From NCBI GenBank assembly GCA_018175075.1, contig GCA_018175075.1_4100.2: a stretch of 64,000 bases of DNA. The stretch is one strand, 5' to 3'. The first letter of the stretch is position 1. Each line of letters opens with the position of its first letter. Made by a program: the position numbers and the translations under genes. The notes under the pieces were generated by a model. It saw nothing but the letters and a program-made list of their open reading frames with translations, was not told the origin of the DNA and did not search any database. Origin of the DNA: a phage. Below, piece after piece: positions 1 through 64,000 of the stretch.

Positions 1-1
1 G

Positions 2-118
2 GATAAGTATAGTTCAGATGTTATACCAGAGGTAATTAACGGATTACAACGAAGGGTTGATATACTTTCATATGATATAATCAATGGAAATATAACAATA
101 AGTATAAACCAAGTATAA
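2..118 (+). CDS. 3' end of an upstream gene (partial, hypothetical)
   Basis: Only open frame from the window edge; stop TAA at 116-118; no start in window. Confidence 0.3.
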   Translation, partial: DKYSSDVIPEVINGLQRRVDILSYDIINGNITISINQV

Positions 119-130
119 GGAGAATACTTC

Positions 131-652
131 ATGGAAGAAGGGAAAAAGAAAGACAAATTGGCAATACACTACACATCAGGTCACGATGTATGGTGTACCC
201 CAAAAGATTTCTTTAAGAAATTGGATGATGTGTGGCATTTTACATTAGATAGTGCATGTGTTAAAGAAACTGCGTTATGTTCTAAGTACTATACACCAGA
301 AACTAATGGTTTAGTACAAGATTGGGGTAATGAAATTGTATGGTGCAATTGTCCATATAGTGATATTAAATCATGGCTAATAAAATGCACAGATGCATAT
401 AACAAAGGGGCAACTGTAATGATTTTAGTACCATCTAGAACAGAAACTATAGCTTTTCAAGATTATGCATGTCCAGTATCTGATGCAATTTGCTTTATTA
501 AAGGAAGATTGAAATTCGTAGATCCACATAATCCACATAGAAAAACAACGGTAGCTCCGTTCCCGTCATGTCTATTAGTTATGGATAGAAATCTAACACA
601 AGCTAAAATAAACTTACTCAAATCTCTCGGAAACACGATGGTTAACATATGA
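131..652 (+). CDS. DNA N6-adenine methyltransferase (phage Dam-like small MTase)
   Basis: RBS AAGGAG upstream; motif WCNCPYSD resembles the (D/N)PPY catalytic motif of N6A MTases; ~173 aa as in small phage N6A MTases. Confidence 0.65.
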   Translation: MEEGKKKDKLAIHYTSGHDVWCTPKDFFKKLDDVWHFTLDSACVKETALCSKYYTPETNGLVQDWGNEIVWCNCPYSDIKSWLIKCTDAYNKGATVMILVPSRTETIAFQDYACPVSDAICFIKGRLKFVDPHNPHRKTTVAPFPSCLLVMDRNLTQAKINLLKSLGNTMVNI

Positions 653-1185
653 CGAAAGAAACATGTATATTATCATTTATGAGATGTAACCCAATACATC
701 ACGGACATGGTTTAGTGTTTGAAAAAGCTCAAGCACTACAAGAACAGTACAATGCTGATTTGAAAATATTCCTTAGTACCAGTACTGATAATATAAAAAA
801 CCCGCTTCCTCCTGAATTAAAGATGTATTACACTGAGGGTTTCTATCCTTCGGTTCAAGAAAACATTTATACTGAAGATAATCTTTTTGATATAATGCGT
901 GAATTAGATGGAAAATATTTAGATGTATTTTTTATATGTGGTTCAGACCGTATTGATTCTTTTCAGAAAACACTTGACAGTTACAATGGGAAGTTGTATA
1001 ATTTTTGTAATATAAAAGCAATTCAAGCAGGTATTGACCGCCAATCAAGTCAATATAGCTCAACACAAATGCGTAACTTCGCAAAAAATGAAGATTTTGA
1101 TAGTTTTCGTGAGTTTTTACCTGGAAATGACGAGGACTTAAAAATACAATTATTTGAAGACGTTATAAAATACATGAGGAAATAA
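649..1185 (+). CDS. HxGH-type nucleotidyltransferase, NMN adenylyltransferase-like
   Basis: N-terminal RCNPIHHGH (H-x-G-H motif) and C-terminal SSTQMR (ISSTxxR-like motif) as in the NadD/NMNAT family; overlaps previous stop. Confidence 0.55.
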   Translation: MTKETCILSFMRCNPIHHGHGLVFEKAQALQEQYNADLKIFLSTSTDNIKNPLPPELKMYYTEGFYPSVQENIYTEDNLFDIMRELDGKYLDVFFICGSDRIDSFQKTLDSYNGKLYNFCNIKAIQAGIDRQSSQYSSTQMRNFAKNEDFDSFREFLPGNDEDLKIQLFEDVIKYMRK

Positions 1186-1187
1186 TT

Positions 1188-1481
1188 ATGTCAGTACTGT
1201 TCAAAACCAATCCAGTACTTTGGGATCAAAATGAGCAATCAGGATTTCGTTCCATCCATGTTGAATACAAAGGTAATACTGTAGTTGCAATTATTGCTAA
1301 CAAAACTCTAGGAAACTGGACTGCACAGGTTGTTCCTATGGGATATTCTTACACATCTGATGAGGTTCAATTCCTGGCTGAACTATATCGTCAAGTGCCG
1401 TTTATCATTAATGTACTAGAAGGTAATGATACATTAACCCATGAAGATGTGATTAATTTTCTTGGAAACTTACATGTGTGA
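1188..1481 (+). CDS. hypothetical protein
   Basis: ORF in tight plus-strand gene array. Confidence 0.5.
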   Translation: MSVLFKTNPVLWDQNEQSGFRSIHVEYKGNTVVAIIANKTLGNWTAQVVPMGYSYTSDEVQFLAELYRQVPFIINVLEGNDTLTHEDVINFLGNLHV

Positions 1482-1761
1482 TGAAATAAATCTTACAGGA
1501 TATTTTTTACAAGAATCAATGATTAAATTTAGTGATAAATTTTCAGTACTGGATGGTATCGAAATGTGGCATGTCAAACCACTGTTCCACACTTTCAGTA
1601 AAGAGCACAAAATGTTATTGACTGAAGCCAGTAAATCAAATAACATATGTGAAATCAAAATTGGTGTAAATGTCTATAAAGGGATGGTTATCTTTTTTGA
1701 CAATAACAGCAACTACTTTTATATTGTTAAGGAGCATTACGTTGACAAATACAAATACTAA
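1462..1761 (+). CDS. hypothetical protein
   Basis: ORF; overlaps neighbours, boundaries uncertain. Confidence 0.45.
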   Translation: METYMCDEINLTGYFLQESMIKFSDKFSVLDGIEMWHVKPLFHTFSKEHKMLLTEASKSNNICEIKIGVNVYKGMVIFFDNNSNYFYIVKEHYVDKYKY

Positions 1762-2356
1762 TACATACTTCCGTTATCTTCGCTTAGGTCTTTCCCTACG
1801 TCCGATCCGTGGAAAGTGCGATTCACTCGCTGACCTTGACTATGCATATGCATTACATCATGAAGGTGTACAGTATGTATTGGGTGATTATGGTGAATTT
1901 GAAGAAACAAATGACAGTACTGGAATTAATGCTGGTGTAGAAAATCTTAACAACATTGCTAACAGTTCTCGCCATGACATTGTGTTACAGATTCAAAACT
2001 TTATTGAGCAGCACACAGGTAAACGTGTTTGGTGCTATGTCGGTACGGATGCACAAATGTCAATTTCATTCGGTAACGATGAAGGATATGTTGCACAGCT
2101 TATTATGGATTTTGAATCTGAAGAGAAGTTTTTAGAATTCAAAGAAAAGATTATTCAGTCACTTGTTGATATGGGTATCCCCGAAGATAAAATGCCAGAA
2201 GTTCAAAACATTGATGAATTTGTTTTGATTCCATCTGATGAGAAATATGATGCAATGTTTACTGCTCTTAATATTCCAGGAGTTATTGTGGAGTACTTTG
2301 ATGATGGTGATGATAGTATCTATATCGATCTAGATGACGATGACGACGATGAATAA
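1670..2356 (+). CDS. hypothetical protein with poly-Asp C-terminus
   Basis: ORF ending DLDDDDDDE; 92-nt overlap with previous ORF so true start is probably downstream; followed by terminator. Confidence 0.45.
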   Translation: MSIKGWLSFLTITATTFILLRSITLTNTNTNTYFRYLRLGLSLRPIRGKCDSLADLDYAYALHHEGVQYVLGDYGEFEETNDSTGINAGVENLNNIANSSRHDIVLQIQNFIEQHTGKRVWCYVGTDAQMSISFGNDEGYVAQLIMDFESEEKFLEFKEKIIQSLVDMGIPEDKMPEVQNIDEFVLIPSDEKYDAMFTALNIPGVIVEYFDDGDDSIYIDLDDDDDDE

Positions 2357-2362
2357 TGTACA

Positions 2363-2391
2363 TAGCCCGACATAAGTTCGGGCTATTTTTG
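2363..2391 (+). terminator. intrinsic terminator
   Basis: Hairpin AGCCCGA...TCGGGCT followed by T-run. Confidence 0.6.
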
Positions 2392-2402
2392 TAAGGGGAT
2401 AT

Positions 2403-3243: not shown

Positions 3244-3253
3244 GAGGTTACAT

Positions 3254-4718: not shown

Positions 4719-4992
4719 ATCGAATGAAGTACTTGTTGCTGAAACAATGAAGATGGTTTATGCCATAACAACTAGTAATGATTTGTCTTACCCAATTAAG
4801 TCCAAGTTGAGGGATATAACTCTTCAGGTTATACAGCAGTACTACAAATCTAAACACAAAAGTATTATTAATGTTTATCGTGACTATGAAAGGATTCGCA
4901 TTTTGTTCTGGAACAAGAATCGAGTTCGTTCGGAATGTGATATAGAAAACTTTAAATTTGAGAATCTTTATTGTTACAAAGCGGGACAATAG
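4708..4992 (+). CDS. hypothetical protein
   Basis: ORF; start set at ATG 4708 (track uses GTG 4690). Confidence 0.45.
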   Translation: MANKSNEVLVAETMKMVYAITTSNDLSYPIKSKLRDITLQVIQQYYKSKHKSIINVYRDYERIRILFWNKNRVRSECDIENFKFENLYCYKAGQ

Positions 4993-5010
4993 CTCAAGTA
5001 GTGATATAAT
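4983..5010 (+). promoter_or_regulatory. sigma70-like early promoter (GGGACA -16- TGaTATAAT)
   Basis: -35-like GGGACA at 4983-4988; extended -10 TGATATAAT at 5002-5010. Confidence 0.5.
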
Positions 5011-5050
5011 ATTGGATGAGGAACAATAACTAACACAAGGAGTGTGTAAA

Positions 5051-5974
5051 GTGCCAAGTAAAAAGCCAGATTCTGAAGTATTCAGACTGGTTGATGAAAA
5101 ATTGAGTTCAATTGGTTCATCGGTAAAAATGGATAGAACAACATACACTACCATATCAAACAAATCAACTTTTTTCTGTGATGAATGTGGGTTTAGTAAA
5201 AATATCATAGTTAGGAATGTGTACAAAAATGGAATATTTTGTCACTGTCCCACATTTAAAACTTTATATAATAAATTGGGTGAAATTAATTCAAAATTAA
5301 AATTAGATATTTCCACATTCACAACTACAAAAAACAAATCTAGATTTTATTGTGACGATTGTGCGTTTGAAAGATATATGACGGTGCATGATGTTAAGTC
5401 TAGAGGTTCATATTGTAAATGTCATTCATCATATTGTATGCCGTTAGATATCGACGAAGCATATAACACTATTATGAATAAAATAAAAGATTACTCAAAT
5501 ACAATATATATGGATAAATCTACATACCGTGGTACACAATATAAGGTTAGATTTTATTGTACAGCGTGTAATTTTGACAAATATATTAATTATAGTAGAG
5601 TTAAATGTGGATCTCTTAACTGCAATTGTATCAGACCAATCCCAGAAGAAAGTAAATTATATATTTTAGGAATATATGAACAAAATATTTTAATAAAATA
5701 TAAAGTTGGTATTTCTACAAAGATTGATAAATCAAGACTAATTAGTATTAGGTCAAAAACTAATTTTATAGTAGAGGAATTATATTATTTTACTGGAAAT
5801 ACCGAAGTTATTAAAAGTGTAGAATATAATATTTTAAATCTGCTTAAAAATAGTAGTAAATTGCCAAAGGATTATTTTGGTGATGGGTATACTGAAACAT
5901 TTGATTTACAAGACATAAATCTTGTTATTGATTATGTATGTAAATGTTTACTCGAAAATAAATTAAAAATATGA
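5051..5974 (+). CDS. putative nuclease: three zinc-ribbon repeats plus C-terminal GIY-YIG-like domain
   Basis: Three repeats of F-x-C-D-x-C...C-x-C; C-terminal GIYEQNILIKYKVGIS resembles a GIY-YIG/T5orf172-type motif; probable GTG start after AAGGAG. Confidence 0.45.
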   Translation: MPSKKPDSEVFRLVDEKLSSIGSSVKMDRTTYTTISNKSTFFCDECGFSKNIIVRNVYKNGIFCHCPTFKTLYNKLGEINSKLKLDISTFTTTKNKSRFYCDDCAFERYMTVHDVKSRGSYCKCHSSYCMPLDIDEAYNTIMNKIKDYSNTIYMDKSTYRGTQYKVRFYCTACNFDKYINYSRVKCGSLNCNCIRPIPEESKLYILGIYEQNILIKYKVGISTKIDKSRLISIRSKTNFIVEELYYFTGNTEVIKSVEYNILNLLKNSSKLPKDYFGDGYTETFDLQDINLVIDYVCKCLLENKLKI

Positions 5975-5999
5975 AAATCATAAACACAAGGAATGTGAA

Positions 6000-6728
6000 A
6001 TGATAGATAATATAAAATTTGCAACAGAAATGGCGAATCAACTCAATATTGCAAATTTCCAAATGTTAACATCTGTTATGGCTGAACATGCTGCGGCATA
6101 TTCATCTAGCGGTATACAATGTGGACAAGCTAACATGTTAGCTGATGTTTATAGTGAAGTTCAAAGCAAACAATATAGCGTAAAGACATACAAGGATAAG
6201 TTCGTAAGTCTTTATATGAATGAAGATATTTCAGAAGACCGCAAATTCACCGATTTTATTATTGAACGCCGTATTAGTGGGGTTTCAGACCCAAATGCAG
6301 CAAGTGATATTGTATTCGATGAGGTATTAAAAGATATATATGAAAATGAATTGAAAAGTAAGAATCATTACAATGTACGTGAAACTAACACAGTGCTAGT
6401 TGGATATGATGAAGACGACCAATATTTCTATTTTCGTATAACAGAAGTTCCATTTGAATATAAAAAACCATCCACTACATCGGTAAAAGAATTCACTGAG
6501 AAGAGTAAAAACTTCAAGAAACACGAAGGAAACCGTTGTAGTATTAATGGTTATGATGAAAATGGTGTTCATGTTTATGAATGGGTTTCACCTAATTGCC
6601 AAACATACACTCGTTGCTTGAAAAAACGTTATAATTTAGAAGAGCATGAATCATTCTATTTTAAAGTTAAGAAGCAAGGTTACACTCGCCCCGCCGATTC
6701 TGAATTGATGGGTATGATATATTTCTAA
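6000..6728 (+). CDS. hypothetical protein
   Basis: ORF with ATG start. Confidence 0.5.
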   Translation: MIDNIKFATEMANQLNIANFQMLTSVMAEHAAAYSSSGIQCGQANMLADVYSEVQSKQYSVKTYKDKFVSLYMNEDISEDRKFTDFIIERRISGVSDPNAASDIVFDEVLKDIYENELKSKNHYNVRETNTVLVGYDEDDQYFYFRITEVPFEYKKPSTTSVKEFTEKSKNFKKHEGNRCSINGYDENGVHVYEWVSPNCQTYTRCLKKRYNLEEHESFYFKVKKQGYTRPADSELMGMIYF

Positions 6729-6738
6729 GGAAACTTCT

Positions 6739-7020
6739 ATGGATTTTTATCTACACACATGGACATACGAACAATATATTACATTATATCTTGAAATTAT
6801 TAACACAGAACCTAGGTGTGGTTGTTGGTTCGCAGATATCATAAAAGAGTATGCTGACGAGTTCGAGTTTGTGTATCTTGGGTCTGATATATTTGTAAAA
6901 AGTGTAGGTAAAACCGGACGAATCACTGATATAGATTACGACACTGTTAGTGTGAATTTCTATGTTGATTTTCCTGATGCTGGCGTTGATGGTGTATATT
7001 GTCTTTATGAAATAATTTAA
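6739..7020 (+). CDS. hypothetical protein
   Basis: ORF followed by terminator. Confidence 0.5.
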   Translation: MDFYLHTWTYEQYITLYLEIINTEPRCGCWFADIIKEYADEFEFVYLGSDIFVKSVGKTGRITDIDYDTVSVNFYVDFPDAGVDGVYCLYEII

Positions 7021-7027
7021 ATTCTTA

Positions 7028-7051
7028 GGCCAGCGTTTGCTGGTCTTTTTT
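7028..7051 (+). terminator. intrinsic terminator
   Basis: Hairpin CCAGC...GCTGG plus T-run. Confidence 0.6.
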
Positions 7052-7064
7052 CGCAGGTACAAAG

Positions 7065-7367
7065 ATGTTCAGTATAGATTTAATTAACAGTACTATCAAA
7101 ATGTTGGCTGATTTGGTGAGACAATCAAATGGAACTTTATATTCTGCAATGTATAAAATGTTTGACCGATATATCAAGGATTGTAACATATCATTATATG
7201 GACTTGCTGTTGATATAGACGATTACTATGGAATTAATACTTCATATAAAACAGGAATTTTAATTGGTATTAATATAAAGATGGGGTATTTCCCTTATTA
7301 CTGTATAGGATTACCAGATAATACTTTGGTAGAATATCCAGCCAGTACTATTAAATTAAGAGGATAA
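7065..7367 (+). CDS. hypothetical protein
   Basis: ORF. Confidence 0.5.
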   Translation: MFSIDLINSTIKMLADLVRQSNGTLYSAMYKMFDRYIKDCNISLYGLAVDIDDYYGINTSYKTGILIGINIKMGYFPYYCIGLPDNTLVEYPASTIKLRG

Positions 7368-26203: not shown

Positions 26204-26232
26204 TTGACTTAAGTGTTTAAGTACTATATTAT
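26204..26232 (+). promoter_or_regulatory. candidate sigma70-like promoter (TTGACT -17- TATTAT)
   Basis: -35 TTGACT at 26204-26209; flanked by TTAAGT(AC) repeats. Confidence 0.45.
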
Positions 26233-26265: not shown

Positions 26266-26874
26266 ATGAAAAGACTATGGCTTGAGGTAGTACAAGCAGT
26301 AATGCTTCTGATGTTGATAAATTTTCCAGCCAGTGCTGGTATTGAAAGTAAAAATGTGATAAAGTACAATCCTGAAACACGTAATGTATATTTCATCTCA
26401 GATATTACGGATGGGTCACTAAAGCGTATGATGGAGTTGTATGATAAAGAACACTATGATACCATTACCATCACATCGCCAGGTGGTGATTTTGATGCTG
26501 GGATTAAAATGGCAAACTTCGTTAGAGACAATGGTATAAATTTAATTGTTTCTAGGTATTGCAACTCAGCATGTACTGTGGTATTCTTCAGTGTAGCTTT
26601 TGAAAAGCGATACATGATAAATCGCTCAGTACTGGGTCTTCATAACATTTCGATTAAAAGTAATGTTACTGATGGTGATAATTCATTTGTGTCTGTAAGA
26701 CAGCTATCAACTTTTACCGAAGAAATGGCAACAAAGGTAGGTTTCCTTTTTTCACTATATGCAGCAAATGGAATCCCACCAGAAGTTCTATTTAGAGTTA
26801 GTCGTTCTCGTGGTGAAGATGTTGTAATATTAACAAAACCAGAACTGGTTTTTTACGGTTCAGTCAAACAATAA
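26266..26874 (+). CDS. secreted ClpP/S49-fold serine protease-like protein
   Basis: N-terminal signal peptide (hydrophobic core, AGI); ITSPGGDFDAG and NSAC motifs resembling the ClpP SPGG and Ser-site regions; a His is present. Confidence 0.5.
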   Translation: MKRLWLEVVQAVMLLMLINFPASAGIESKNVIKYNPETRNVYFISDITDGSLKRMMELYDKEHYDTITITSPGGDFDAGIKMANFVRDNGINLIVSRYCNSACTVVFFSVAFEKRYMINRSVLGLHNISIKSNVTDGDNSFVSVRQLSTFTEEMATKVGFLFSLYAANGIPPEVLFRVSRSRGEDVVILTKPELVFYGSVKQ

Positions 26875-39804: not shown

Positions 39805-42501
39805 ATGTCAAAGAAAATATATGGTGGCTTAGATGTCACACATAATGTGACAGTTAATGGTAAAAGAACAATTCAAGGAATAAATGAACAAGTTTTTGAT
39901 TCCAACGGTAACTTGGAATTAGATACTTATTCCAGAGATGAAGTACTAGATATAGTAAGTATGATGCCAATCTCCCATTATGGTTCACAAAACTATCTAC
40001 CTGCGGGTGTTTCTGGGGATTTCAATGGTGCATCAGAAAACCAGTCACAACGTAGAAATAAAATTTTATTAGAAAACGATGGTACACTAGTACTTTTACG
40101 TAGTGGGACAAACGGTAGTGTTGAGGGATTATTTTATTCATATTTGGCTAACGCATTATCAGTTGATGACATGAGCCGTACAATTAACACTAGTCGTCAA
40201 TACAAGCCTGGGTTTTTTGGTTCAAATAGAGTTGCGATTGGTTTATACAATACTGATCCAAATATTTTACTCGGTAGATATATTGATACTTCTAACAGTA
40301 CTAATGGTTTGTTCATATCAATTACCAATGGTACATTAGATGATAAATTGCATACTGGTTTTTTCGTTAACCAAGCAGATATATCACCTGAAGGTGGTAT
40401 TGAATATGCTATGATGGCAGAAGATGGTTCTATATATGTTTTTAACGTACTTAATGAAAATAACCAACTACAATTAGTTGTTGTTAAAGTTGTTTATAAT
40501 ATAAGCAATGGTACTTATACTGCAACTCGAATTACTGGATGGACTACTAAAACATTTTATAACACGACATATTCTGCACAAAATAATATGGTTATTACTA
40601 ATCAGGTAACATCAACAAATATTGCTGATAAACCTTATGTGTATGTTCCACAAAATCTACGCGGTATTGGGATTTACATGACATCAATTGATTTATATGT
40701 TGCACAGCAGCCAGGAACGCAGAATTTCCGCTTTAGAATGAACGGGGATGCTTGGTTTACAATGGCAACATATAATACACGTCCACAGCATAGTTACAGT
40801 TTTGTGTTCAATATGAGTACTAAACAATGTACATTAGATGCGGGTAACGATATTGGTTCATATCAAGCACCATTAGTTATAACTAATACTGGTTCGGCAT
40901 TAGTTCCTACTGGTAACGTTTTAAATAACGATCCATTGTATAACCATGCAAATGCAAGAAACATTTATAGTTCATATTTTTATTTAAATTCAGGTGAAGC
41001 ATTTTGTACTGCATGTCCAAACTTAGCAGAACCATTACTTATGCAAAAAGCTAAGTTTCCTATTCAAATAGTTTATAGTATGCTGAATGTCCGTGCTGTA
41101 CTTTCTACTGACTTCAAAGGTGGTATAGTTCGCCCGTCTTTTGGTTCAGCGGTTGGTTCATTTATTAATGGTGTAGAATTACTACCAGATAACAGTACTA
41201 AACAATATTCACGTGCATCAGGTAGTGGTGGATTTAGACCATCATATGCAGTTCATAAAAGTACTCCTAATTTTACATTTAAATCATTATCTTTAGGAAC
41301 AATACAAGGTTATGAACCTACAGTTGAACGTGCTAATGTTGATGATAATGCAAATAATAGAATTTTTATTAGTAGTATTTCTGGGTCAACTGTCACAACC
41401 AATGGTGGTATTTTTATGGTTGGGAAACGTTATTCACAATCATTATCCTATGATAAAAACTTAAATGGCACAGGAATTATAAGCGTTACACAATCAGTAC
41501 TGGACAATTTTAGAAATACTGAATATGCCAAAGTTCTAAGTGATTGGAATTTATCAGCACAAGCATACCGTGATATGACACTATTTGTTCCACAACAAAC
41601 AGACATTCCAGCTTTTGTTATGTTGAGTACAATTACTAATGATTATAGAAACTATATTAGAATTGCTGAAGTTAATGTCAATACTAGAGTTGGTAATATT
41701 ACATCTATTACATTTAAGCGTTTAGTACTTGAGAATACGTATGGTGATAACTTTACACCAACTGGGAATGGTTCGATTGCATCTTCTTCTGTTGGTTTGA
41801 CCATATATGATGGTGGTTCATTCTACTTCATTGGTGGTTCTGACCCATTATCACATCCAACAATAGGTAATACTGCAACTCATCAATTTAGAGCATATGT
41901 AACTAAATCAACTGCACAATTTACAAGTTTTATAATTACTGGATCTCATGCCAGTTATGAACAAGGAAGTCAACCAGCAGCATTACCTGGTATTGGTTTT
42001 GGAATTTTTGAACCAATGGATTACTCAAATAAAATGACATTCAAAAAATATGGAACAACGATTGCAGACTATAATAACTGGACTGCACAAGGTAGCCCAA
42101 TTAACGTAGTATCCCAGGACGTTGCTCAAGGGTTTATTGTATATTTTACAGAGGAAACACCAGTTATTCTTTCAGGTAAGTCATTTTCACTACCAGTTTC
42201 AAATATTGATTTGAGAACTATTAAGTCTAATCCAGCAAATACAACATTTTATGTATATGTTAAATTGGAACAAGGATTGGCAAACTATTACATAACTACT
42301 GATGTTATTTCTGAAACAGGAACAACTGCATATAATATTTTTTGGATAGGTACAATTCAAACTAATGCAATTCAAATCGAAACAATTAATATACAAAAAC
42401 GTTCCCGTTTAGATATATTTGGTGCTTCACTTGAATCAGCAGGTTCATCGTTCCCAGTTAGCTACGGTCTACCATCACAAACAGGAACCATAAACTGGTA
42501 A
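39805..42501 (+). CDS. large fibre-like structural protein (paralog A)
   Basis: 898 aa, Ser/Thr/Asn/Gly-rich; shares N-terminal (LRSGTNGS) and C-terminal (GSSFPVS.G.PS.TGT..W) blocks with 43117..45846. Confidence 0.5.
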   Translation: MSKKIYGGLDVTHNVTVNGKRTIQGINEQVFDSNGNLELDTYSRDEVLDIVSMMPISHYGSQNYLPAGVSGDFNGASENQSQRRNKILLENDGTLVLLRSGTNGSVEGLFYSYLANALSVDDMSRTINTSRQYKPGFFGSNRVAIGLYNTDPNILLGRYIDTSNSTNGLFISITNGTLDDKLHTGFFVNQADISPEGGIEYAMMAEDGSIYVFNVLNENNQLQLVVVKVVYNISNGTYTATRITGWTTKTFYNTTYSAQNNMVITNQVTSTNIADKPYVYVPQNLRGIGIYMTSIDLYVAQQPGTQNFRFRMNGDAWFTMATYNTRPQHSYSFVFNMSTKQCTLDAGNDIGSYQAPLVITNTGSALVPTGNVLNNDPLYNHANARNIYSSYFYLNSGEAFCTACPNLAEPLLMQKAKFPIQIVYSMLNVRAVLSTDFKGGIVRPSFGSAVGSFINGVELLPDNSTKQYSRASGSGGFRPSYAVHKSTPNFTFKSLSLGTIQGYEPTVERANVDDNANNRIFISSISGSTVTTNGGIFMVGKRYSQSLSYDKNLNGTGIISVTQSVLDNFRNTEYAKVLSDWNLSAQAYRDMTLFVPQQTDIPAFVMLSTITNDYRNYIRIAEVNVNTRVGNITSITFKRLVLENTYGDNFTPTGNGSIASSSVGLTIYDGGSFYFIGGSDPLSHPTIGNTATHQFRAYVTKSTAQFTSFIITGSHASYEQGSQPAALPGIGFGIFEPMDYSNKMTFKKYGTTIADYNNWTAQGSPINVVSQDVAQGFIVYFTEETPVILSGKSFSLPVSNIDLRTIKSNPANTTFYVYVKLEQGLANYYITTDVISETGTTAYNIFWIGTIQTNAIQIETINIQKRSRLDIFGASLESAGSSFPVSYGLPSQTGTINW

Positions 42502-42512
42502 AGGATTACATA

Positions 42513-43100
42513 ATGGCATATAAAATAAGAGCAGACCTTAAGGCAATGCAACAAGTAACAGTTCAGGGTAAAAGTACTGGTCTTGGTGTATTAGGTAATA
42601 ATATGACTTATTACCCAACAAATTCAAATGGGGAATGTACATTCCCCTCTATTACCAAAGATGAAGTTAACTTTATTGTCAATGGATTACCACTTACACA
42701 ATACGGAGAATTGTATGATGACGCTAGTCTAAATATTACTTCATCAGGCTATAGTCTTACATTTAACAGACAGATACCATCATTTATTGGTGGTTATCTT
42801 TATAAATTTCCAGCAGTTTCTATTTTTGCTTCAACTGTTTCATCTGGAACACAAACACAATACGTATATGCAACGTTAGTTCTCGGTGAACCAATTTATA
42901 AAATATCACCAACACAAATACAAGAATCTGAAATTATAATGTTTATTGGAACACTGACCGTTGGTACAAGTGGTATTACAAATATAAACATTAATAAAGT
43001 ATCCAGATTTAGTACATATAGACCTAGTGTTACACAAAAAGGTTCTTCATTCCCAGTCAGTACTGGAAAACCATCAGAAACTGGTACAATTGGTTGGTAA
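42513..43100 (+). CDS. short fibre-like paralog (195 aa)
   Basis: C-terminus ...YRPSVTQKGSSFPVSTGKPSETGTIGW matches neighbours. Confidence 0.5.
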   Translation: MAYKIRADLKAMQQVTVQGKSTGLGVLGNNMTYYPTNSNGECTFPSITKDEVNFIVNGLPLTQYGELYDDASLNITSSGYSLTFNRQIPSFIGGYLYKFPAVSIFASTVSSGTQTQYVYATLVLGEPIYKISPTQIQESEIIMFIGTLTVGTSGITNININKVSRFSTYRPSVTQKGSSFPVSTGKPSETGTIGW

Positions 43101-43116
43101 ATTAAGGAAAAGAAAG

Positions 43117-45846
43117 ATGTCATCAAAACGAATTATAGGAAGTGCCGAGATCCTTGGGAACTTGGCAATTGGACAAAGGTACGCTATGCGTACTTTTAAT
43201 GGAACCTCACCGAATGCCAATACTGGAATTGTTCAATATCCAATATATAAGCGTTCAGAAGTTCAAAGTATTTTAGATATGTTGCCTATATCACGTGTAG
43301 GAGAAATGGATTACTTACCATTAAACGTAAGTGGATCGTATGAAGGTGCTACACCTATGTCAAGTGACCAAGTAGTTCAGCCAACAATTATTGAAGATGA
43401 TGGAACCGCCGTTGTTCTGCGTAGCGGAACCAATGGTAGTACTAAAGGTTTTTATTATTCATTTATACGAGATCTCCGAAATATAACTATGATTTCACAA
43501 GAAAGTGTTATTTCAACCAATTCAATGTATAAACCTTCAATTATGAGTAGTACTGAAAATATTAAGTATTTTATTGGCTCTAATGGTTATGAGATGCTTG
43601 GATGTTTAAGTACTGAAGATAATTATATTTTTACTATAACCAATGGCACATTTAACGAAATATCACATATTCATGCTAAAGTTCCAAGTACTTCTTTTGG
43701 TAATGATATGCCAATATATACACATATTGTTGGGACAAAGGTTTATATTTGGTGTAAAGATAAAAGTGTTTCTAATTTAGGATTAGCACTTTCAATTTAT
43801 ACAGTAGAGCTAAGTGATGTGAAAGCAAGCTCAATGGCATCATTAACAAAAGTTACTGGGTTATCAGGTCAAACTGTTCGAAACACAAGTTATTCTGCAT
43901 CTAATAACATAAGAGTGTTCGATAAATTATATAGTGTTGGTACTAGCTCGGATTCATTATTCGAAGTTACATCACCAGTATCACGTGTAGAATTTTCAGA
44001 CTATACAGACTTTAACATTCAAGCCAACGTTAGTCCTGATTTATCAAAAATACGTGTAACTTTATATCCAACACATCGAATGGTTACACCTTTGTATATT
44101 TCAACAGTTTATGGTACTGGAATAAGTTTTGTTTATAATATAAACTCAAAATCTATGTCACTAGATGGTAGTGCTCGTGCACCTGCAACTGTTTCATATA
44201 ATAATGGATTTCAAGTTTCTAACCCATTTGAAATTAATATGGTCAACTTCACAGGGACAACTGCTGCTGGTGTATTAGGAAACGCAGGTGGTTTATGTCA
44301 AACTAAAGATGGTTTGGTATTTGCATCTAAATTTAGATGGAGTTCAACTGAATTTTATGGTCTACAACGATATAAGGTTAGTGGTACACCGTTTGATTCA
44401 TGGGTTGCCAGTACTAGAACCGCAAGTAACGTTATAAATGCAAACGTTTTACCAGTTTTTGGTAGTGCTGTTGGTGCAAACCTTTTAGGTGTACGTTTCA
44501 TCGATAATAGAAAAATATTATTAGCATGTTCTGGTACGTATGATGATGTAACATATAATTATAATAATACTGTTTTTTCTGAAATAGGTTCACAACCAAC
44601 ATATCAATATAACTCAGTTCAAAATAATACTACATTAAATGGTTTTGCACCACAATCTAATCGTAAACAAATAGGCGATGATTTTACATACACTGCTATG
44701 ATTTCTCTTGTTGATACCGATGGTAGTGTTAGATGCTATGGAACATCATTCATTGAAGGTGTATATAAAACAAGTGGTGGATTATTAAACCCAGATACTT
44801 TAGAATTTGATGAAACATATACAATAGAACCAACGGTATTAGAATCATTAAAACAAGATATTTTTGCTAATATAGGAAACTCTGGCATTGTTGGCACACT
44901 ATCTGGACAAATTGTATTATATTATGTACCTGATAATACTTTTTCTAAATCCATCGCAGTAGTTTCAGCATATAATCTTAACAATAACCAAGGTTATGCA
45001 ATCTATGCCGAAGTTGATGTTGTATTATCTGGAACTAACATAACTTCAGCTACATTGGTGAGTACTAGATATGAGACACTTAGTTCTGTTACAGGAATTA
45101 TTACTGAAGCATATATGAAACGTTGTACTGGTCTAACAGTTGCAAAATATTCAGGATTTGGTTACATTGGTGTTGATGCTGTTCATCAATTTTCACAACC
45201 AGGTAATGCACAATTTAAGATGATGATAGCTAAAACAGTAGATGGTGTCATAACATCAAATCGTTTTTTATCATCTAGTTACATCCAACTTGGTGCAGCA
45301 TATCAACATGGTGTTATTCCTGGTGTTGGTTTTGGATATTACAATTTTCAAGATTCTGACTATCAAACCAAATCTGTATTCAGCGTTTTTGGTACAACAT
45401 CTGCTGAAATGGATGGTTTAATTAGCGGAAATGGTAGCGTTAAAGAAAAGATTGTGGTAGTATCACAAGACGTTGCACAAGGATTCTCAGTGTACTTTAC
45501 ACGTGAAGTTCCGGTGTTTTTAGGTGGAATTTTCGACAGACTACCTATACAAAGTGTTGATTTAAGTACTGTAAAAAGTAACCCAGCTAATACTACGTTC
45601 TATTTGTATATACAAATGAACAGGAATACTAAGAAAGCGTCATATGTTATTAGTACTGAAACAATTGATGAATCTTTAACTAGCACTTACATTGGTAAGA
45701 TAGTTACTGGAACTTCAGGAATAACTTCAATTGATACAGAAAAAGTAACTCGTTTTTTGACATATCGTCCAAGTACAACGAAACGTGGTTCAGCGATACC
45801 TGCCAGTACTGGTGTACCATCAGGTCCAGGTACACGTTGGAAATAA
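43117..45846 (+). CDS. large fibre-like structural protein (paralog B)
   Basis: Start at ATG 43117 after AAGGAAAAG; shared N- and C-terminal blocks with 39805..42501. Confidence 0.5.
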   Translation: MSSKRIIGSAEILGNLAIGQRYAMRTFNGTSPNANTGIVQYPIYKRSEVQSILDMLPISRVGEMDYLPLNVSGSYEGATPMSSDQVVQPTIIEDDGTAVVLRSGTNGSTKGFYYSFIRDLRNITMISQESVISTNSMYKPSIMSSTENIKYFIGSNGYEMLGCLSTEDNYIFTITNGTFNEISHIHAKVPSTSFGNDMPIYTHIVGTKVYIWCKDKSVSNLGLALSIYTVELSDVKASSMASLTKVTGLSGQTVRNTSYSASNNIRVFDKLYSVGTSSDSLFEVTSPVSRVEFSDYTDFNIQANVSPDLSKIRVTLYPTHRMVTPLYISTVYGTGISFVYNINSKSMSLDGSARAPATVSYNNGFQVSNPFEINMVNFTGTTAAGVLGNAGGLCQTKDGLVFASKFRWSSTEFYGLQRYKVSGTPFDSWVASTRTASNVINANVLPVFGSAVGANLLGVRFIDNRKILLACSGTYDDVTYNYNNTVFSEIGSQPTYQYNSVQNNTTLNGFAPQSNRKQIGDDFTYTAMISLVDTDGSVRCYGTSFIEGVYKTSGGLLNPDTLEFDETYTIEPTVLESLKQDIFANIGNSGIVGTLSGQIVLYYVPDNTFSKSIAVVSAYNLNNNQGYAIYAEVDVVLSGTNITSATLVSTRYETLSSVTGIITEAYMKRCTGLTVAKYSGFGYIGVDAVHQFSQPGNAQFKMMIAKTVDGVITSNRFLSSSYIQLGAAYQHGVIPGVGFGYYNFQDSDYQTKSVFSVFGTTSAEMDGLISGNGSVKEKIVVVSQDVAQGFSVYFTREVPVFLGGIFDRLPIQSVDLSTVKSNPANTTFYLYIQMNRNTKKASYVISTETIDESLTSTYIGKIVTGTSGITSIDTEKVTRFLTYRPSTTKRGSAIPASTGVPSGPGTRWK

Positions 45847-56443: not shown

Positions 56444-56884
56444 ATGGAAGATATTAATGATTTACGACACGTAATGGACTTTATCGGAAGTACTGAAGAA
56501 GATAATTCATATGATGAAGTACTATTAACTTTTATTGAAAATAGTTTGTTTTTAAGTTCTGCTGCACATAACTGGCACTTACAATGTCATTTTTATACAA
56601 AGCATTTACAATTAGATGAACTATATAAAGAATTACCAGAATATGTAGACGCATTTGTTGAAGGTATCATGAATAATCGTGGTGCTTTGCAAGTTGGGAC
56701 TGGTAATAGTTATCGTTTTACACCAATTGAAGATTGTGTACCAATTCTTGAAGAATATGTTGAGCAATGCAGAGCAATTCATGATATGCTTGAAGAATCG
56801 GGTGATTACGGCAGTGTAAACACATTAGAAGATATTATGAGTTTTGTTGAAGGAACACTTTACAAACTTAAAGTTTTACAATAA
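56444..56884 (+). CDS. acidic hypothetical protein
   Basis: RBS AAGGAG. Confidence 0.5.
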   Translation: MEDINDLRHVMDFIGSTEEDNSYDEVLLTFIENSLFLSSAAHNWHLQCHFYTKHLQLDELYKELPEYVDAFVEGIMNNRGALQVGTGNSYRFTPIEDCVPILEEYVEQCRAIHDMLEESGDYGSVNTLEDIMSFVEGTLYKLKVLQ

Positions 56885-57550: not shown

Positions 57551-57562
57551 AAGAGGTTGAAC

Positions 57563-58870: not shown

Positions 58871-58887
58871 TAAGGATTCACAAATTT

Positions 58888-59169: not shown

Positions 59170-59177
59170 GGAGTTAT

Positions 59178-60779: not shown

Positions 60780-60785
60780 AAGTGT

Positions 60786-60812
60786 TTGGCCTCACTATGT
60801 GGGGTCTTTTTT
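60786..60812 (+). terminator. possible terminator
   Basis: Weak hairpin then TCTTTTTT. Confidence 0.35.
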
Positions 60813-60823
60813 AAGGTATCTAT

Positions 60824-61267: not shown

Positions 61268-61659
61268 TTATGAGATGGCGTAAACGACATGTAACAAGAT
61301 TTGATAAAATAATCAAAAAGTATTTCTCGCATAAGTTAGATCCAATCATACTTCAACTAAGAAGTAGTATGTTTGATAGACGTTTCCCACAGTGTTTAGA
61401 ATCGTACAGTCGTAAACGTTACAAGAATGAATACCTGGTATATCGTTATGATTTATCAGAATTCTTTTTGAATACTCGTGTATCTGTACCCATCAGACTG
61501 TACTCAAGGGTAAAACGAAGTAGGGTTCAAGATATTACATATGGATATCTTATGATTGAAATCGACGACCTCAATGAAAAAACTGGCAGAAATTACAGTA
61601 CTTTATGTCTGGAAAACCATGATTCAATAAAAAGAATCATAGAAGAGTTGGGAAAGTGA
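61264..61659 (+). CDS. hypothetical protein
   Basis: ORF. Confidence 0.5.
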   Translation: MIMRWRKRHVTRFDKIIKKYFSHKLDPIILQLRSSMFDRRFPQCLESYSRKRYKNEYLVYRYDLSEFFLNTRVSVPIRLYSRVKRSRVQDITYGYLMIEIDDLNEKTGRNYSTLCLENHDSIKRIIEELGK

Positions 61660-61688
61660 GATTTTTAGTGCTATAATTGGAGATGAGT

Positions 61689-62033
61689 ATGAAATACATC
61701 GATAAAGGTACAGTGGAGACACAGTACTGGAATATCCATATTGCTGGTGATATTCAAACAGCAAGAGAATACACAAGAAAATTTGCGTTTAAGCATGGCT
61801 TTTGTGTACAATTAATTCCCTGTGAATATATCTACACTGGTGGTCTTGAAAGTGGGATGTGTGCTCGTATTATTCAGTACCCACGCTTTCCAAAAGAAGA
61901 AGTATATCTCAACCGAGATGTATTAAACTATGCAAAGGGTTTAGCTGAAGAGTTGTGTCAAAAGAGCTTTACTATAGAGCGAAATAATGATACAATTTAT
62001 TATGAAAGTGATGAACCTTTACACAAGAAATAA
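61689..62033 (+). CDS. hypothetical protein
   Basis: ORF; start at ATG 61689 after GGAG. Confidence 0.45.
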   Translation: MKYIDKGTVETQYWNIHIAGDIQTAREYTRKFAFKHGFCVQLIPCEYIYTGGLESGMCARIIQYPRFPKEEVYLNRDVLNYAKGLAEELCQKSFTIERNNDTIYYESDEPLHKK

Positions 62034-62044
62034 AAGGAAAATAT

Positions 62045-62176
62045 ATGAATGGACTAAAGAAATTTGGTAAAGATTTTCTAAAATGCATACGCTACACATA
62101 TGATGCAAATCCAGAAATGACTGCCATTGTGGGTGTGTTTATTACACTCGTTGTATTAAGCTTTATTGTGGTGTAA
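62045..62176 (+). CDS. small membrane peptide (43 aa)
   Basis: ORF below track threshold; AAGGA RBS; hydrophobic C-terminus. Confidence 0.35.
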   Translation: MNGLKKFGKDFLKCIRYTYDANPEMTAIVGVFITLVVLSFIVV

Positions 62177-62179
62177 AAT

Positions 62180-62383
62180 ATGATTGAAATTAATGCTGAT
62201 ATATATTGTAGTGCATCACCCAATTACTTCATTTATGCACTAAGTACATTTGGTGAAACTGAAGGTGAAACTTTTGTTTTAGTAGAGAATACTACATGGT
62301 TCAAAACAAGTAATAAAATTCCGAAAGATGTTTTGGAAACATATGTTCGTATTGAAAATAAAAACATATATGTAATTTTATAG
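62180..62383 (+). CDS. small hypothetical protein
   Basis: ORF. Confidence 0.4.
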   Translation: MIEINADIYCSASPNYFIYALSTFGETEGETFVLVENTTWFKTSNKIPKDVLETYVRIENKNIYVIL

Positions 62384-62390
62384 GTAACAT

Positions 62391-62801
62391 ATGATTGAAA
62401 TGGAAGGAACTCTGGTGTATGATCCAGATCGTGGCACTATGAAAAAGAAGAAGGACTTCTGGTTAGTACTACAACTTCCATTACAGTTGGTTCGATACTA
62501 CCAGTACTTCATCAGAACTGACTTACATATTGATATTAAAGACCCACAATGGGGAGCACATGTCAGTATCGTTCGTGGTGAAGTGCCACCAAATCCAGAG
62601 TACTGGAAAAAGTACGATGGAATGAAAGTAAAGATAAAGTTCAATCCTTGTATTGAGATAGTAAAAGATAAAAAGAATCCAGGTTCATTCTTTATCATTG
62701 AATTTGAAGATGATTTCATCACACATATTAGAAATGAACTAGGACTACCAACCAAGTACTTTAAATATCACATCACTGTAGGTAGAACTTACTACGATTA
62801 A
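62391..62801 (+). CDS. 2H-phosphoesterase-like protein (LigT-like)
   Basis: Two H-x-S/T-x motifs (AHVSIV and YHITVG) about 90 aa apart. Confidence 0.45.
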   Translation: MIEMEGTLVYDPDRGTMKKKKDFWLVLQLPLQLVRYYQYFIRTDLHIDIKDPQWGAHVSIVRGEVPPNPEYWKKYDGMKVKIKFNPCIEIVKDKKNPGSFFIIEFEDDFITHIRNELGLPTKYFKYHITVGRTYYD

Positions 62802-62825
62802 TGTGGTTTTTACAGTAAATATGTC

Positions 62826-62853
62826 TTGTAATAAAATAAAAATATGCTATACT
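62826..62853 (+). promoter_or_regulatory. candidate promoter (TTGTAA -16- TATACT)
   Basis: Spacing and hexamers approximate the sigma70 consensus. Confidence 0.35.
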
Positions 62854-62969
62854 ACTTAAACATTTGAAAAGAACGTTTTTGTACTGTAGAAAGTCCGATG
62901 AGGCTTTTGCAAATGGCCTCTTTGCCATCTTTGTGATTGCCCATCTTAACAATCAACAAAGGAGGCGTT

Positions 62970-63896
62970 TTGAAACAAGCGAAAAAAGCACTGAAAACTA
63001 AGACTACTTATGGTGTTCTAGTTTGCACAGTACTTGTCGCTGCGATTGGATTTTATGGTTTTTCTCAAAATGATCGTGTATCATCATCGGACGAAAGTCA
63101 GGTACACAATTTAAAACCACAAGTTACGCAAATTCAAAAGCAGGAATTACCAAAGGTAGAAATATCAAAGGATGTTCCACGCGGCGAGAAGCATTATACG
63201 GTTCAACCTGGTGATAGTTATTATTCTATTGCTAAAAAGTTTAAACCTAAAAATGTACAACTTGAAGAGTATGTTATTTTGTTGAAAAATATCAATTTAA
63301 ATGCTACTCTTCATACTTCTCAGGGTATCTTTATCCCAACAAAAGAGGATTTGAAGAACGTATTGTTACCAGATGTGACTGTACTGTTTGATTATAATGA
63401 TCCAGAAATTGTCAATCACATCAAAGAAGCTGAAGGTTCAATTGAATTTCAGTCCAAGAACAAACGCCGTTTACTTGGTGGGAAAGTCGGAGTTCCTTTC
63501 CACAATTCTAAATTTCATCCCTACAAGGACATGAAAGGTAATTATACAATAGGTTATGGGCATTATTTGGGTAGAAAAGAATCTGATGCGATTAAGTACA
63601 GAAACGGTATTACCAAAGCTCAAGCCAATAAACTTTTAATGCAAGATATGAAAAGAACATATAATGACTTTTTATTATTGATGCAGAAAAAAGAAGCAGT
63701 AAATCTGACCAAAGAACAACAACGTATTCTTTATGAAATGTCCTATACAATGGGTGTTGATAAATTAGCAACGTTTAATAAACTTTGGAAAAGTGTGAAA
63801 AATGATAACCCTAAGAAATTTAAAAAAGAAATTATGAATTCCTTATGGTATCGTCAAGTTACAAACCGAGCAGATTTGTTGTTAAGTTCACTCTAA
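62970..63896 (+). CDS. membrane-anchored LysM-domain lysozyme (T4 lysozyme-like C-terminal domain)
   Basis: Probable TTG start after AAAGGAGG; N-terminal TM segment; LysM-like YTVQPGDSYYSIAKKF; C-terminal YKD.KGNYTIGYGH...WYRQVTNRA resembles T4 lysozyme. Confidence 0.6.
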   Translation: MKQAKKALKTKTTYGVLVCTVLVAAIGFYGFSQNDRVSSSDESQVHNLKPQVTQIQKQELPKVEISKDVPRGEKHYTVQPGDSYYSIAKKFKPKNVQLEEYVILLKNINLNATLHTSQGIFIPTKEDLKNVLLPDVTVLFDYNDPEIVNHIKEAEGSIEFQSKNKRRLLGGKVGVPFHNSKFHPYKDMKGNYTIGYGHYLGRKESDAIKYRNGITKAQANKLLMQDMKRTYNDFLLLMQKKEAVNLTKEQQRILYEMSYTMGVDKLATFNKLWKSVKNDNPKKFKKEIMNSLWYRQVTNRADLLLSSL

Positions 63897-63912
63897 AAAA
63901 GGAAGGTGAAGT

Positions 63913-64000
63913 ATGCTAAATCTAAATATTCAAGGCAACGTTGATATCACTCCAGCAATCCAAGATGCTATTTACAATGAAGCAAAAAGTCTGGATAAGT
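63913..64000 (+). CDS. 5' end of a downstream gene (partial, hypothetical)
   Basis: RBS AAAAGGAAGG then ATG; runs off the window. Confidence 0.35.
   Translation, partial: MLNLNIQGNVDITPAIQDAIYNEAKSLDK

Follow-up and report, generated by a model that had tools for sequence, protein, structure and literature searches.

Small genes for host takeover, each under a strong early promoter of its own, fill the terminal redundancy of phage SPO1, and the SPO1 protein TF1 prefers the hydroxymethyluracil DNA of the phage over host DNA, its preferred sites overlapping early promoters. Here we describe the palindromic hexamer AGTACT, which is strongly over-represented in a 64,000-nucleotide stretch of phage DNA (NCBI GenBank assembly GCA_018175075.1, contig GCA_018175075.1_4100.2; called the window below) and in related jumbo phages. 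By analogy, TF1 appears to be the closest known precedent: here, too, the terminal repeat is made up of small genes with strong early promoters, and AGTACT lies over these promoters. Unlike with TF1, discrimination would be by sequence and the factor is hypothetical; unlike in SPO1, an HU-family gene was not found by tblastn in a relative genome. The distinction would be written in the sequence because DNA of fEgEco12, a phage of this clade, is cut normally by ten restriction enzymes (PMC13070987).

GATC, as used by Dam, SeqA and MutH in Escherichia coli, provides a second point of comparison. Both motifs are short palindromes spread genome-wide at sub-kilobase spacing through coding and non-coding DNA, and three hallmarks of a Dam/SeqA-type system (a genome-wide palindrome, hyperdense clusters and promoter-embedded copies between or over the -35 and -10 elements) are found for AGTACT. 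The two also differ. AGTACT is a hexamer and not a tetramer and is enriched 8-13-fold, whereas GATC in E. coli is near expectation; its hyperdense locus is an early-gene terminal repeat and not an origin; and no methyltransferase of AGTACT specificity is known here, nor was a SeqA or MutH homologue found by tblastn in the relative genome.

Other well-described oligomers share individual traits with AGTACT. Like Chi, which is read by RecBCD, and the uptake sequences USS and DUS, it is an over-represented 'self' oligomer whose density is kept while its copies turn over, also inside genes; those signals are 8-12 nt long, asymmetric and orientation-dependent, whereas AGTACT is palindromic, has 6 bp and occupies fixed places in promoters. 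The operators of the ribbon-helix-helix (RHH) proteins MetJ and Arc are likewise very short palindromes of 6-8 bp (metbox AGACGTCT) whose phased copies overlap a promoter, but they do not occur genome-wide. The dimer-read SlmA site GTGAGTACTCAC, also a palindrome, has the same central six bases; the outer GTG/CAC that SlmA requires is absent around AGTACT and statistically avoided. AGTACT is also identical to the ScaI target (AGT^ACT). Phages normally avoid restriction targets and purge short palindromes; AGTACT, in contrast, is enriched 7.9-fold in the window and 5.5-13-fold in relatives, while Pseudomonas phage PA5oct avoids it. Neither the RE_ScaI family nor an RHH protein is among the Pfam families listed for the 111 window proteins (the best 25 of 34 families) and for 355 small proteins of a relative (at most 230 aa).

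The significance of the finding lies in a restriction-type hexamer being enriched 8-13-fold across several genera of 350-kb phages, bending their protein sequences, and being built into the core of early promoters. Such a motif could explain how these phages tell their own unmodified DNA from host DNA. In the papers covered on this clade (Sharanji, CBB, RaK2 and fEgEco12 among them), on giant-virus methylomes and on AGTACT/SlmA sites, neither the AGTACT excess nor its promoter placement, nor the absence of GCGC described below, is mentioned. We class the finding as an over-represented genomic signature or operator motif.

Counts, reading frames and flanks of AGTACT

An exact count over the whole window gives 169 copies of AGTACT (2.64/kb, or about one per 380 bp). 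Base composition, at a G+C content of 33%, predicts 21.5, so the excess is 7.9-fold. Markov models predict 16.9 (first order, a 10-fold excess), 29.6 (second order), 54.2 (third order, 3.1-fold) and 141 (fourth order), the last of which reflects only the enrichment of the pentamers AGTAC and GTACT themselves. Among all 4096 hexamers AGTACT ranks first by excess (z = 31.8), with CAGTAC and GTACTG next. The initial annotation had proposed a roughly ten-fold over-representation from counts by eye and had named Markov and codon-aware models as the check; the excess persists under both. Its estimate of 3-5 copies per kb in four sampled kilobases becomes 4, 4, 4 and 5 by exact counting, somewhat above the window mean, and its figure of about 17 for the 6-kb fibre-gene block was only slightly low (Table 1).

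Open reading frames (ORFs) were called from ATG starts at a minimum of 50 aa, longest first, which yielded 111 plus-strand genes over ~90% of the window. Shuffling synonymous codons within these genes leaves 57.5 ± 5.6 copies of AGTACT (maximum 76; z about 20 for the 169 observed) and shuffling whole codons leaves 39.6 ± 4.5. Both nulls are generous, in that they retain a codon usage inflated by AGTACT itself. As had been claimed at the outset, the excess extends to every codon phase (73 copies read AGT-ACT, 30 xAG-TAC-Txx and 48 xxA-GTA-CTx) and to the 18 copies outside called ORFs, and density is equal in coding (2.63/kb) and non-coding (2.73/kb) DNA. An artefact of codon usage or amino-acid composition might be suspected from the preference for the codons AGT, ACT and GTA; it is refuted by the two shuffles, which already concede the motif-inflated usage, as well as by the enrichment in three phases and in non-coding DNA, and we give it a negligible chance. 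The pressure for AGTACT is large enough to alter dipeptide usage, with 125 Ser-Thr pairs in window proteins against 84 expected (73 of the 125 spelt AGTACT) and 147 Val-Leu pairs against 97, while the reversed dipeptides Thr-Ser and Leu-Val stand at the expected level.

The unit under enrichment is the full palindrome and not GTAC, since only AGTACT is strongly enriched among the 16 hexamers of the NGTACN family (169 copies, followed by AGTACA with 49, TGTACT with 36 and the rest with 0-26). Its flanks are dyad-symmetric, with C at -1 in 82 of 169 copies and G at +1 in 80 of 169, in agreement with the flanking bases noted earlier by eye; G at -1 and C at +1 are used least. The preferred form is thus the 8-bp palindrome CAGTACTG, present 37 times in the window. 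Such symmetric flanks point to recognition of duplex DNA by a dimer. This bears on a different role, in which AGTACT would be a priming or nicking site, either a primase template (a cryptic base plus a 5-nt primer) or a nickase site at which the sliding clamp used in T4-type late transcription would be loaded. These phages have a T4-like core of replication and late transcription (PMC5259590), the length of the motif fits one cryptic base plus a pentamer primer as inferred from the T4 and T7 primases, and spacing is sub-kilobase on both strands. However, the symmetric flanks and the strict need for the full palindrome (169 copies versus 17 of CGTACT, 16 of GGTACT and 36 of TGTACT) favour duplex recognition, and the promoter positions and early-region excess described below would go unexplained; we judge a priming or nicking role to be very improbable.

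Beyond the flanks there is little context. The commonest 10-mer around AGTACT is seen only 10 times, and neither conservation beyond ±2 bases nor a second motif within ±80 bp was found in the window; with no context beyond ±2 bases, a repeat family or mobile element was rejected as the source of the excess. Sites are spread evenly along ORFs without an excess toward starts or ends, their spacing is near-Poisson and sub-kilobase, and 30 genes lack the motif where a Poisson distribution predicts 38.7. Two pairs of sites lie exactly 18 bp apart (32443/32461 and 34451/34469). These were checked as LexA-type boxes and none are; more generally, neither LexA-box nor TrpR-like arrangements of AGTACT were found.

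Selection keeps AGTACT density, not position

By megablast the window belongs to the Asteriusvirus group, jumbo coliphages of ~350 kb such as 121Q, PBECO4, G17 and Sharanji; over most of its first 20 kb, vB_EcoM_E9.1 and 31 further records match it at ~96% identity. AGTACT is in 5.5- to 13-fold excess in phages of E. coli, Salmonella, Klebsiella, Cronobacter, Yersinia and Pectobacterium. Homologous regions of ~43-50 kb contain 106 copies against 14.5 expected in EC.P1, 100 against 11.9 in Salmonella phage Munch, 119 against 10.0 in Cronobacter phage GAP32 and 118 against 14.1 in Yersinia phage fHe-Yen9-04. Non-homologous DNA is enriched as well, as seen in a structural/replication stretch of Klebsiella phage RaK2 (92 against 16.7) and in the right end of Pectobacterium phage CBB (226 against 16.8). 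The core proteins of the enriched relatives are merely 35-60% identical to those of the window. No excess was found in Erwinia phage Deimos-Minion (Agricanvirus; 12 sites in 43 kb), and AGTACT is depleted in the related PA5oct, with 1 and 3 sites in two 49-kb stretches where ~16-17 are expected. A 50-kb sample of E. coli K-12 holds 3 copies (0.06/kb), and phage DNA is 40-100 times denser than that sample.

PA5oct has further peculiarities of composition. Between 60 and 159 kb, AGTACT is down about 8-fold (4 in 98 kb versus 33 expected), the AT-rich palindromes TCATGA, TACGTA, ACATGT and AAGCTT are depleted too, and the most enriched hexamers are TGCAGA and ATGCAG.

Alignments reveal what is conserved. 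In the comparison with EC.P1, which covers 38 kb at 85% nucleotide identity, 72% of the window sites (68 of 94) are preserved, whereas the figure for same-phase control hexamers is 44-45%, some 5 standard deviations lower; each side has 26-27 private sites. In the comparison with fHe-Yen9-04, 5431 aligned codons agree in 50% of amino acids and 59% of nucleotides; the aligned columns contain 48 copies in one phage and 49 in the other, and only 9 of them are shared. These comparisons show that selection keeps the density of AGTACT, about 2-3 sites/kb genome-wide, and not its position, a behaviour that is also a hallmark of Chi.

It might be argued that the excess is a functionless by-product of a mutational or repair bias or of biased gene conversion, given that it is uniform over frames and non-coding DNA, that positions turn over and that ratios of observed to shuffled counts are alike in all regions; biased repair, too, would make existing sites seem conserved. 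A drive of this kind should leave its mark on near-matches. In the window, the one-mismatch neighbours of AGTACT stand at ratios of 0.65-2.0 without specific depletion, and the C-to-T neighbour AGTATT/AATACT is at 1.0. With no depleted neighbour, Vsr-like biased repair and conversion drive were rejected, and the depletion of one-mismatch variants that would accompany an uptake-sequence-like drive is likewise not seen. An excess of 8-13-fold also far exceeds the modest bias that Vsr-type repair is credited with in E. coli, AGTACT is missing altogether from 13 kb of conserved genome, and fixed promoter positions conserved across unalignable intergenic DNA, described below, are unexpected from drive. 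We therefore consider a by-product unlikely.

Early promoters and the terminal repeat

The distribution of AGTACT over a complete genome was followed in 350 kb of OR844650.1, an unannotated relative that is ~97% identical to the window, which corresponds to roughly its 196-260 kb. This genome has 918 copies where 119 are expected (z = 73). The long late and structural genes (55-200 kb) have about 1.7/kb, regions like the window about 3/kb and the stretch at 301-327 kb 5-10/kb, and the block at 300-332 kb, which holds the terminal repeat, contains 195 copies in 32 kb. The right end of the G17 record, including its terminal repeat, maps to 322.2 kb of OR844650.1, and the genus is known to have direct terminal repeats of 20.7-21.0 kb (PMC11895373, PMC13070987); thus the hyperdense block is the terminal repeat plus about 5 kb. 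Overall, the ~21-kb terminal-repeat and early-gene region, which lies outside the window, has about 6-7 sites/kb. The annotated repeat of CBB has 6.4/kb against 3.0/kb in adjoining DNA, with a step at the annotated boundary. In G17 the hyperdense block is annotated as dozens of genes of 50-90 aa on one strand, many with their own terminator, a gene layout that suggests an early, host-takeover region, as has been argued for CBB (PMC5259590). This AGTACT-dense end would presumably be the first phage DNA expressed.

A hyperdense terminal repeat is also what might be expected of a Chi-like, end-protection or recombination signal, a palindrome readable from either end of a linear genome and densest in the repeats that must recombine into circles or concatemers. 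Conservation of density without position is compatible with this role, and these phages carry T4-type recombination genes (gp46/47, UvsX). Against it, the high density runs about 5 kb past the repeat, following the early genes, and the fixed positions relative to -35 and -10 would not be explained. AGTACT, a perfect palindrome with symmetric flanks, has neither the asymmetry nor the orientation bias of Chi; the host Chi sequence GCTGGTGG occurs only 2+2 times in the window; and no cognate helicase-nuclease is known, only the T4-type gp46/47 being annotated. A Chi-like role seems rather improbable.

The promoters in the hyperdense block were located from the -35/-10 pattern alone, and the position of AGTACT was read afterwards. 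In an Asteriusvirus relative, AGTACT starts 5 nt before the -35 hexamer in 19 of 34 promoters (AAAAGTACTTGCA), so that it abuts the -35 element and overlaps the first base of its hexamer, and in 12 of 34 it lies 15-16 nt after the -35 start and 7 nt before TATAAT (CAGTACTGTATAAT). One or both positions are occupied in 30 of the 34, several promoters having both and four neither. CBB uses the -35 position in 14 of 22 promoters and the -10 position in 13 of 22, and many of its promoters carry both sites 21 bp apart (AAAAGTACTTGCAAAATGAATGCGAGTACTTTATAAT). Two sites separated by 20-21 bp would lie on one face of the helix. Genome-wide, pair distances have no sharp preferred spacing and a mild excess at 20-21 bp. 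The promoters themselves are near-consensus and of sigma-70 type, with A-tract UP-like elements; the CBB paper noted RpoD-like promoters with a UP-like element and does not mention AGTACT. A fixed position over the -35 and/or -10 element in many promoters, as operators have, is therefore a property of AGTACT.

This arrangement is a specific signature of the clade. An exact-pattern scan of IMG/VR with AGTACTTG-N11-14-AGTACTNTATAAT gave about 110 matches, where about 1 is expected by chance (an estimate from the 20 specified bases). Nearly all are clustered and co-oriented in contigs of 345-378 kb, which include 121Q, RaK2 (7 matches), GAP32, CBB, Serratia phage BF, fHe-Yen9-04 and six metagenomic jumbo-phage contigs. 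Early-promoter stretches of RaK2, GAP32, 121Q, Serratia BF and Yen9-04 have 6-7 AGTACT/kb and those of three metagenomic jumbo contigs 5-7/kb; these stretches were chosen for containing the dual-site pattern, and each match adds two sites to the density. Motif density and promoter pattern together also mark the early region and terminal repeat in new assemblies.

Based on these data, we tentatively propose, at somewhat less than even confidence, that AGTACT is the recognition site of a conserved, sequence-specific, dyad-symmetric DNA-binding activity of RaK2-like jumbo phages of Enterobacterales. The form recognised disfavours G just 5' and C just 3' of the hexamer, and in coliphages the 8-bp form with C and G flanks is preferred. 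Only sequence-specific recognition explains together the dyad symmetry, the conservation above that of same-phase controls, the density kept over deep divergence and the exact -35/-10 placement in genera whose DNA cannot be aligned. The earlier suggestion of a DNA-level and probably functional signal, as opposed to a protein motif, is supported by the same observations and by the equal treatment of all phases and non-coding DNA. A phage-encoded or virion-delivered factor would bind AGTACT, and at early promoters it would most likely repress or time transcription from an operator position. Because the promoters are near-consensus and need no activator, and because the sites overlap both elements on one face, they resemble shut-off or timing operators more than activator sites. 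By way of the dispersed sites, that factor could also coat or mark phage DNA in preference to host DNA, sequence doing here what recognition of a modified base does for SPO1 TF1.

Several points weigh against this proposal. No candidate factor emerged: tblastn with HU, TF1, SeqA, MutH, MetJ, Arc, Mnt, Fis, AsiA, SlmA, Dps and Dam on the whole relative genome gave nothing significant, and helix-turn-helix (HTH) and RHH families are absent from the Pfam families listed for the window and for the small proteins of the relative. Searches of this kind would miss a novel fold or a factor supplied by the host. CBB_511, the sole annotated HTH regulator, was rejected as restricted to CBB and GAP32. Six base pairs are short for a classical HTH dimer, and the evidence does not explain why a promoter operator should need about 900 intragenic copies. 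Since the early promoters are paralogues of each other, counting them does not count independent events, and part of the -35-proximal sequence resembles a UP-element A-tract. Finally, the ratio of observed to synonymous-shuffle counts is alike (3.2-3.8) in early, middle and late regions, and the extra early density therefore lies in amino-acid and codon composition; it may come partly from weak constraint on small early proteins.

The main rival is based on methylation. AGTACT would be the target of a phage orphan DNA methyltransferase, and its methylation state (parental DNA fully methylated, progeny un- or hemimethylated) would switch early promoters and mark phage DNA, as GATC does with Dam and SeqA. 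Type II methyltransferases typically recognise sites like this one, 6-bp palindromes whose flanks carry little information, and genome-wide sites, hyperdense clusters and copies at -35/-10 mirror GATC at oriC and at Dam-regulated promoters. Several orphan methyltransferases are encoded by these phages (PMC11895373), and, reportedly, the only enzymes to cut RaK2 DNA are ones insensitive to Dam, Dcm, CpG and EcoKI methylation (PMC3622015). Even so, methylation by itself gives no reason for an 8-fold enrichment, and no methyltransferase was seen that is common to all enriched genera. The PF01555 methyltransferase was rejected as the common factor, being confined to the Mimasvirus/Eneladusvirus branch (GAP32, CBB and the Yersinia phage). 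The Dam-family gene of the window (Table 1), to which the initial annotation had speculatively linked the motif, is not supported as the partner: it is a variable, divergent allele, probably exchanged horizontally, and we saw nothing to connect the two. The best tblastn hit for SeqA or MutH in the 350-kb relative (E = 0.04 over 49 aa) is not convincing, and fEgEco12 DNA gave the predicted cuts with 10 enzymes, a set without ScaI (PMC13070987). On balance, we regard methylation as possible, though doubtful.

Alternatively, a protein of the enterobacterial host might read AGTACT. Enrichment is confined to phages of Enterobacterales and reversed in the Pseudomonas relative, and early promoters must work prior to any phage protein. 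We know of no E. coli factor with an AGTACT site of its own. One candidate is the nucleoid-occlusion factor SlmA, whose binding to its 12-bp site would block cell division; the SlmA consensus contains AGTACT (PMC3020112), and cells infected by the close relative Sharanji filament (PMC11895373). However, the full site GTRAGYRCTYAC has 0 copies in the window and in the EC.P1, Yen9-04, RaK2 and PA5oct loci, and half-extended sites with SlmA-type flanks number 12 where about 27 are expected. G1 and T2 are essential for SlmA (PMC3020112), whereas around AGTACT the flanks used least are G at -1 and C at +1. The SlmA site was rejected on these grounds; a SlmA homologue was not found in the phage records, and, as noted above, LexA-box and TrpR-like arrangements are likewise missing. 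Recognition by a host protein is in our view improbable.

The early region has other features worth recording. Two AGTACT-free islands in OR844650.1, at 285,378-293,664 (8.3 kb) and 296,097-301,096 (5.0 kb), lie beside the hyperdense terminal repeat. They are conserved in all Asteriusviruses, including G17, while CBB has no such island. The 8.3-kb island encodes a diverged paralogous family of 170-205-aa proteins (PHROG 19795/12674) with no Pfam match. Zero AGTACT in the islands mainly means 'no enrichment', since composition alone predicts about 4. Throughout the early region, identical terminator hairpins GGGATTGACTCCGGTCAGTCCC recur with TTTGCTATTATAT, which reads as a promoter, directly after them (in G17, for example, the hairpins at 351,610-351,631, 354,362-354,383 and 357,631-357,652), which indicates that promoter-gene-terminator cassettes have been duplicated. 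About 25 bp ahead of several promoters there is also a recurrent element, TTCAGTACTGAAAACTATTTTT. The terminal-repeat region of OR844650.1 also encodes a DksA/TraR zinc-finger protein (Pfam, 1e-11), likely an RNA-polymerase modulator.

Window features and the absence of GCGC

Coordinates of the AGTACT sites and of the features discussed are collected in Table 1. The promoter-like site listed there lies upstream of an ORF at 26266-26874 and is the only one in the window with AGTACT placed as in early promoters, the other 168 copies being dispersed. The longest AGTACT-free stretch was considered as a recent insertion and rejected, as the gap is not significant (~0.45 such gaps are expected among 168 Poisson gaps). 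Homologues of the fibre-block proteins in relatives are annotated as minor tail or structural.

Table 1. Positions of AGTACT and of associated features in the window
Feature	Coordinates	Strand	Details
AGTACT starts, 1-10 kb	285, 781, 1193, 1214, 1545, 1916, 2292, 2615, 2807, 2883, 3065, 3106, 3476, 3595, 3829, 4043, 4075, 4414, 4586, 4728, 4838, 7089, 7344, 7393, 7717, 7801, 7876, 8094, 8484, 8550, 8787, 9231, 9306, 9528, 9780		
AGTACT starts, 10-20 kb	10042, 10224, 10978, 11728, 12991, 13117, 13248, 13617, 14172, 14579, 14909, 14921, 15693, 15834, 16584, 16956, 17232, 17601, 17645, 17768, 18030, 18485, 18655, 19218, 19383, 19607, 19776		
AGTACT starts, 20-30 kb	20091, 20626, 20716, 20773, 20845, 20861, 21624, 22005, 23088, 23227, 24276, 24558, 24925, 25239, 25423, 25633, 26220, 26628, 27603, 27797, 28616, 28961, 29577		
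AGTACT starts, 30-40 kb	30108, 30226, 30411, 30888, 30951, 32225, 32352, 32443, 32461, 33354, 33667, 34031, 34183, 34451, 34469, 34509, 35220, 35924, 36254, 36616, 36971, 37475, 37777, 37986, 38390, 38522, 39399, 39616, 39942		
AGTACT starts, 40-50 kb	40089, 40297, 40816, 41194, 41260, 41496, 41724, 42573, 43059, 43438, 43549, 43609, 43687, 44410, 45061, 45565, 45652, 45805, 46523, 47192, 48191, 48722, 49069, 49336		
AGTACT starts, 50-64 kb	50152, 51000, 51107, 51315, 52784, 53511, 53756, 53935, 54629, 55439, 55656, 56274, 56489, 56518, 57334, 57704, 58061, 58081, 58436, 58768, 59256, 59463, 60023, 60470, 61597, 61723, 62465, 62503, 62599, 62755, 63029		
Sigma-70-type promoter-like site	26204..26232	+	TTGACT, 17-nt spacer, TATTAT; AGTACT at 26220-26225, 7 nt before -10
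Dam-family N6-adenine DNA methyltransferase gene	131..652	+	PF05869, E = 1.8e-28
Longest AGTACT-free stretch	4844..7088	.	2.25 kb; three ORFs of unknown function
Fibre-gene block	39805..45846	+	two ~900-aa paralogous minor-tail/virion proteins and a 195-aa ORF; 19 AGTACT

A second anomaly of the window is the absence of GCGC, which has 0 copies where dinucleotide shuffles give 28 and composition predicts 48. Consequently, every hexamer palindrome that contains GCGC is at 0 as well. The tetramer is missing throughout the 350 kb of OR844650.1 (~290 estimated from base composition) and in the EC.P1, RaK2, Yersinia-phage and CBB loci, while PA5oct is normal (52 vs 35). Such absence suggests either a phage-encoded GCGC-specific nuclease directed against host DNA or a strong, universal restriction pressure. 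Taken together with AGTACT, it raises the speculative and rather doubtful idea of a two-motif 'self/non-self code' that would replace the base modification of T4 or SPO1: a private hexamer (~900 copies) would be read by a factor to time early promoters and to distinguish, coat or protect phage DNA, while, with GCGC lacking from the phage, its nuclease could destroy host DNA and nothing else.

Other palindromes depart from expectation in the window as well. GATC (92 vs 194 expected, a ratio of 0.48), GGCC (9 vs 48), CCGG (15 vs 48) and CTAG (0.46 of expectation) are depleted, and many G+C-rich hexamer palindromes are absent. CATATG (47 vs 21) is the only 6-bp palindrome besides AGTACT that is clearly above expectation.

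The methyltransferase gene of the window appears to be an exchanged cassette, judging from its similarities. Its best protein match (81.5% amino-acid identity) is in Klebsiella phage phiKp_21, a 47-kb siphovirus; the K64-1 copy is 61% identical, and most Asteriusvirus and Alcyoneusvirus copies are 60-80% identical. The gene is far more divergent than its surroundings, and alignments with close relatives begin only near position 197 or 654.

Among the Pfam families listed for the window are NrdD/G, thymidine kinase, dCMP deaminases, Rnl1, PNK, DNA ligase, Sir2, PhoH and ClpP, families whose predicted functions are in nucleotide metabolism and RNA repair. The homologue of the ORF at 56444-56884 is annotated as a 'ferritin-like protein' in Munch and as a 'starvation-inducible regulator' in GAP32, which suggests a Dps-like product; the relationship, if real, would be remote, since E. 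coli Dps has no tblastn match in the relative genome. Small proteins encoded at 1-87 kb of OR844650.1 include, by Pfam, a complete IF-3 homologue (IF3_N 6e-16, IF3_C 8e-14), a ClpS adaptor, GroES and a sigma-70-family protein with regions 3 and 4. Those encoded at 87-306 kb include a small TnsA-like protein with a restriction-endonuclease fold (PF08722, 2e-16), a ParE-like toxin domain and a protein with a T5orf172/MUG113 domain.

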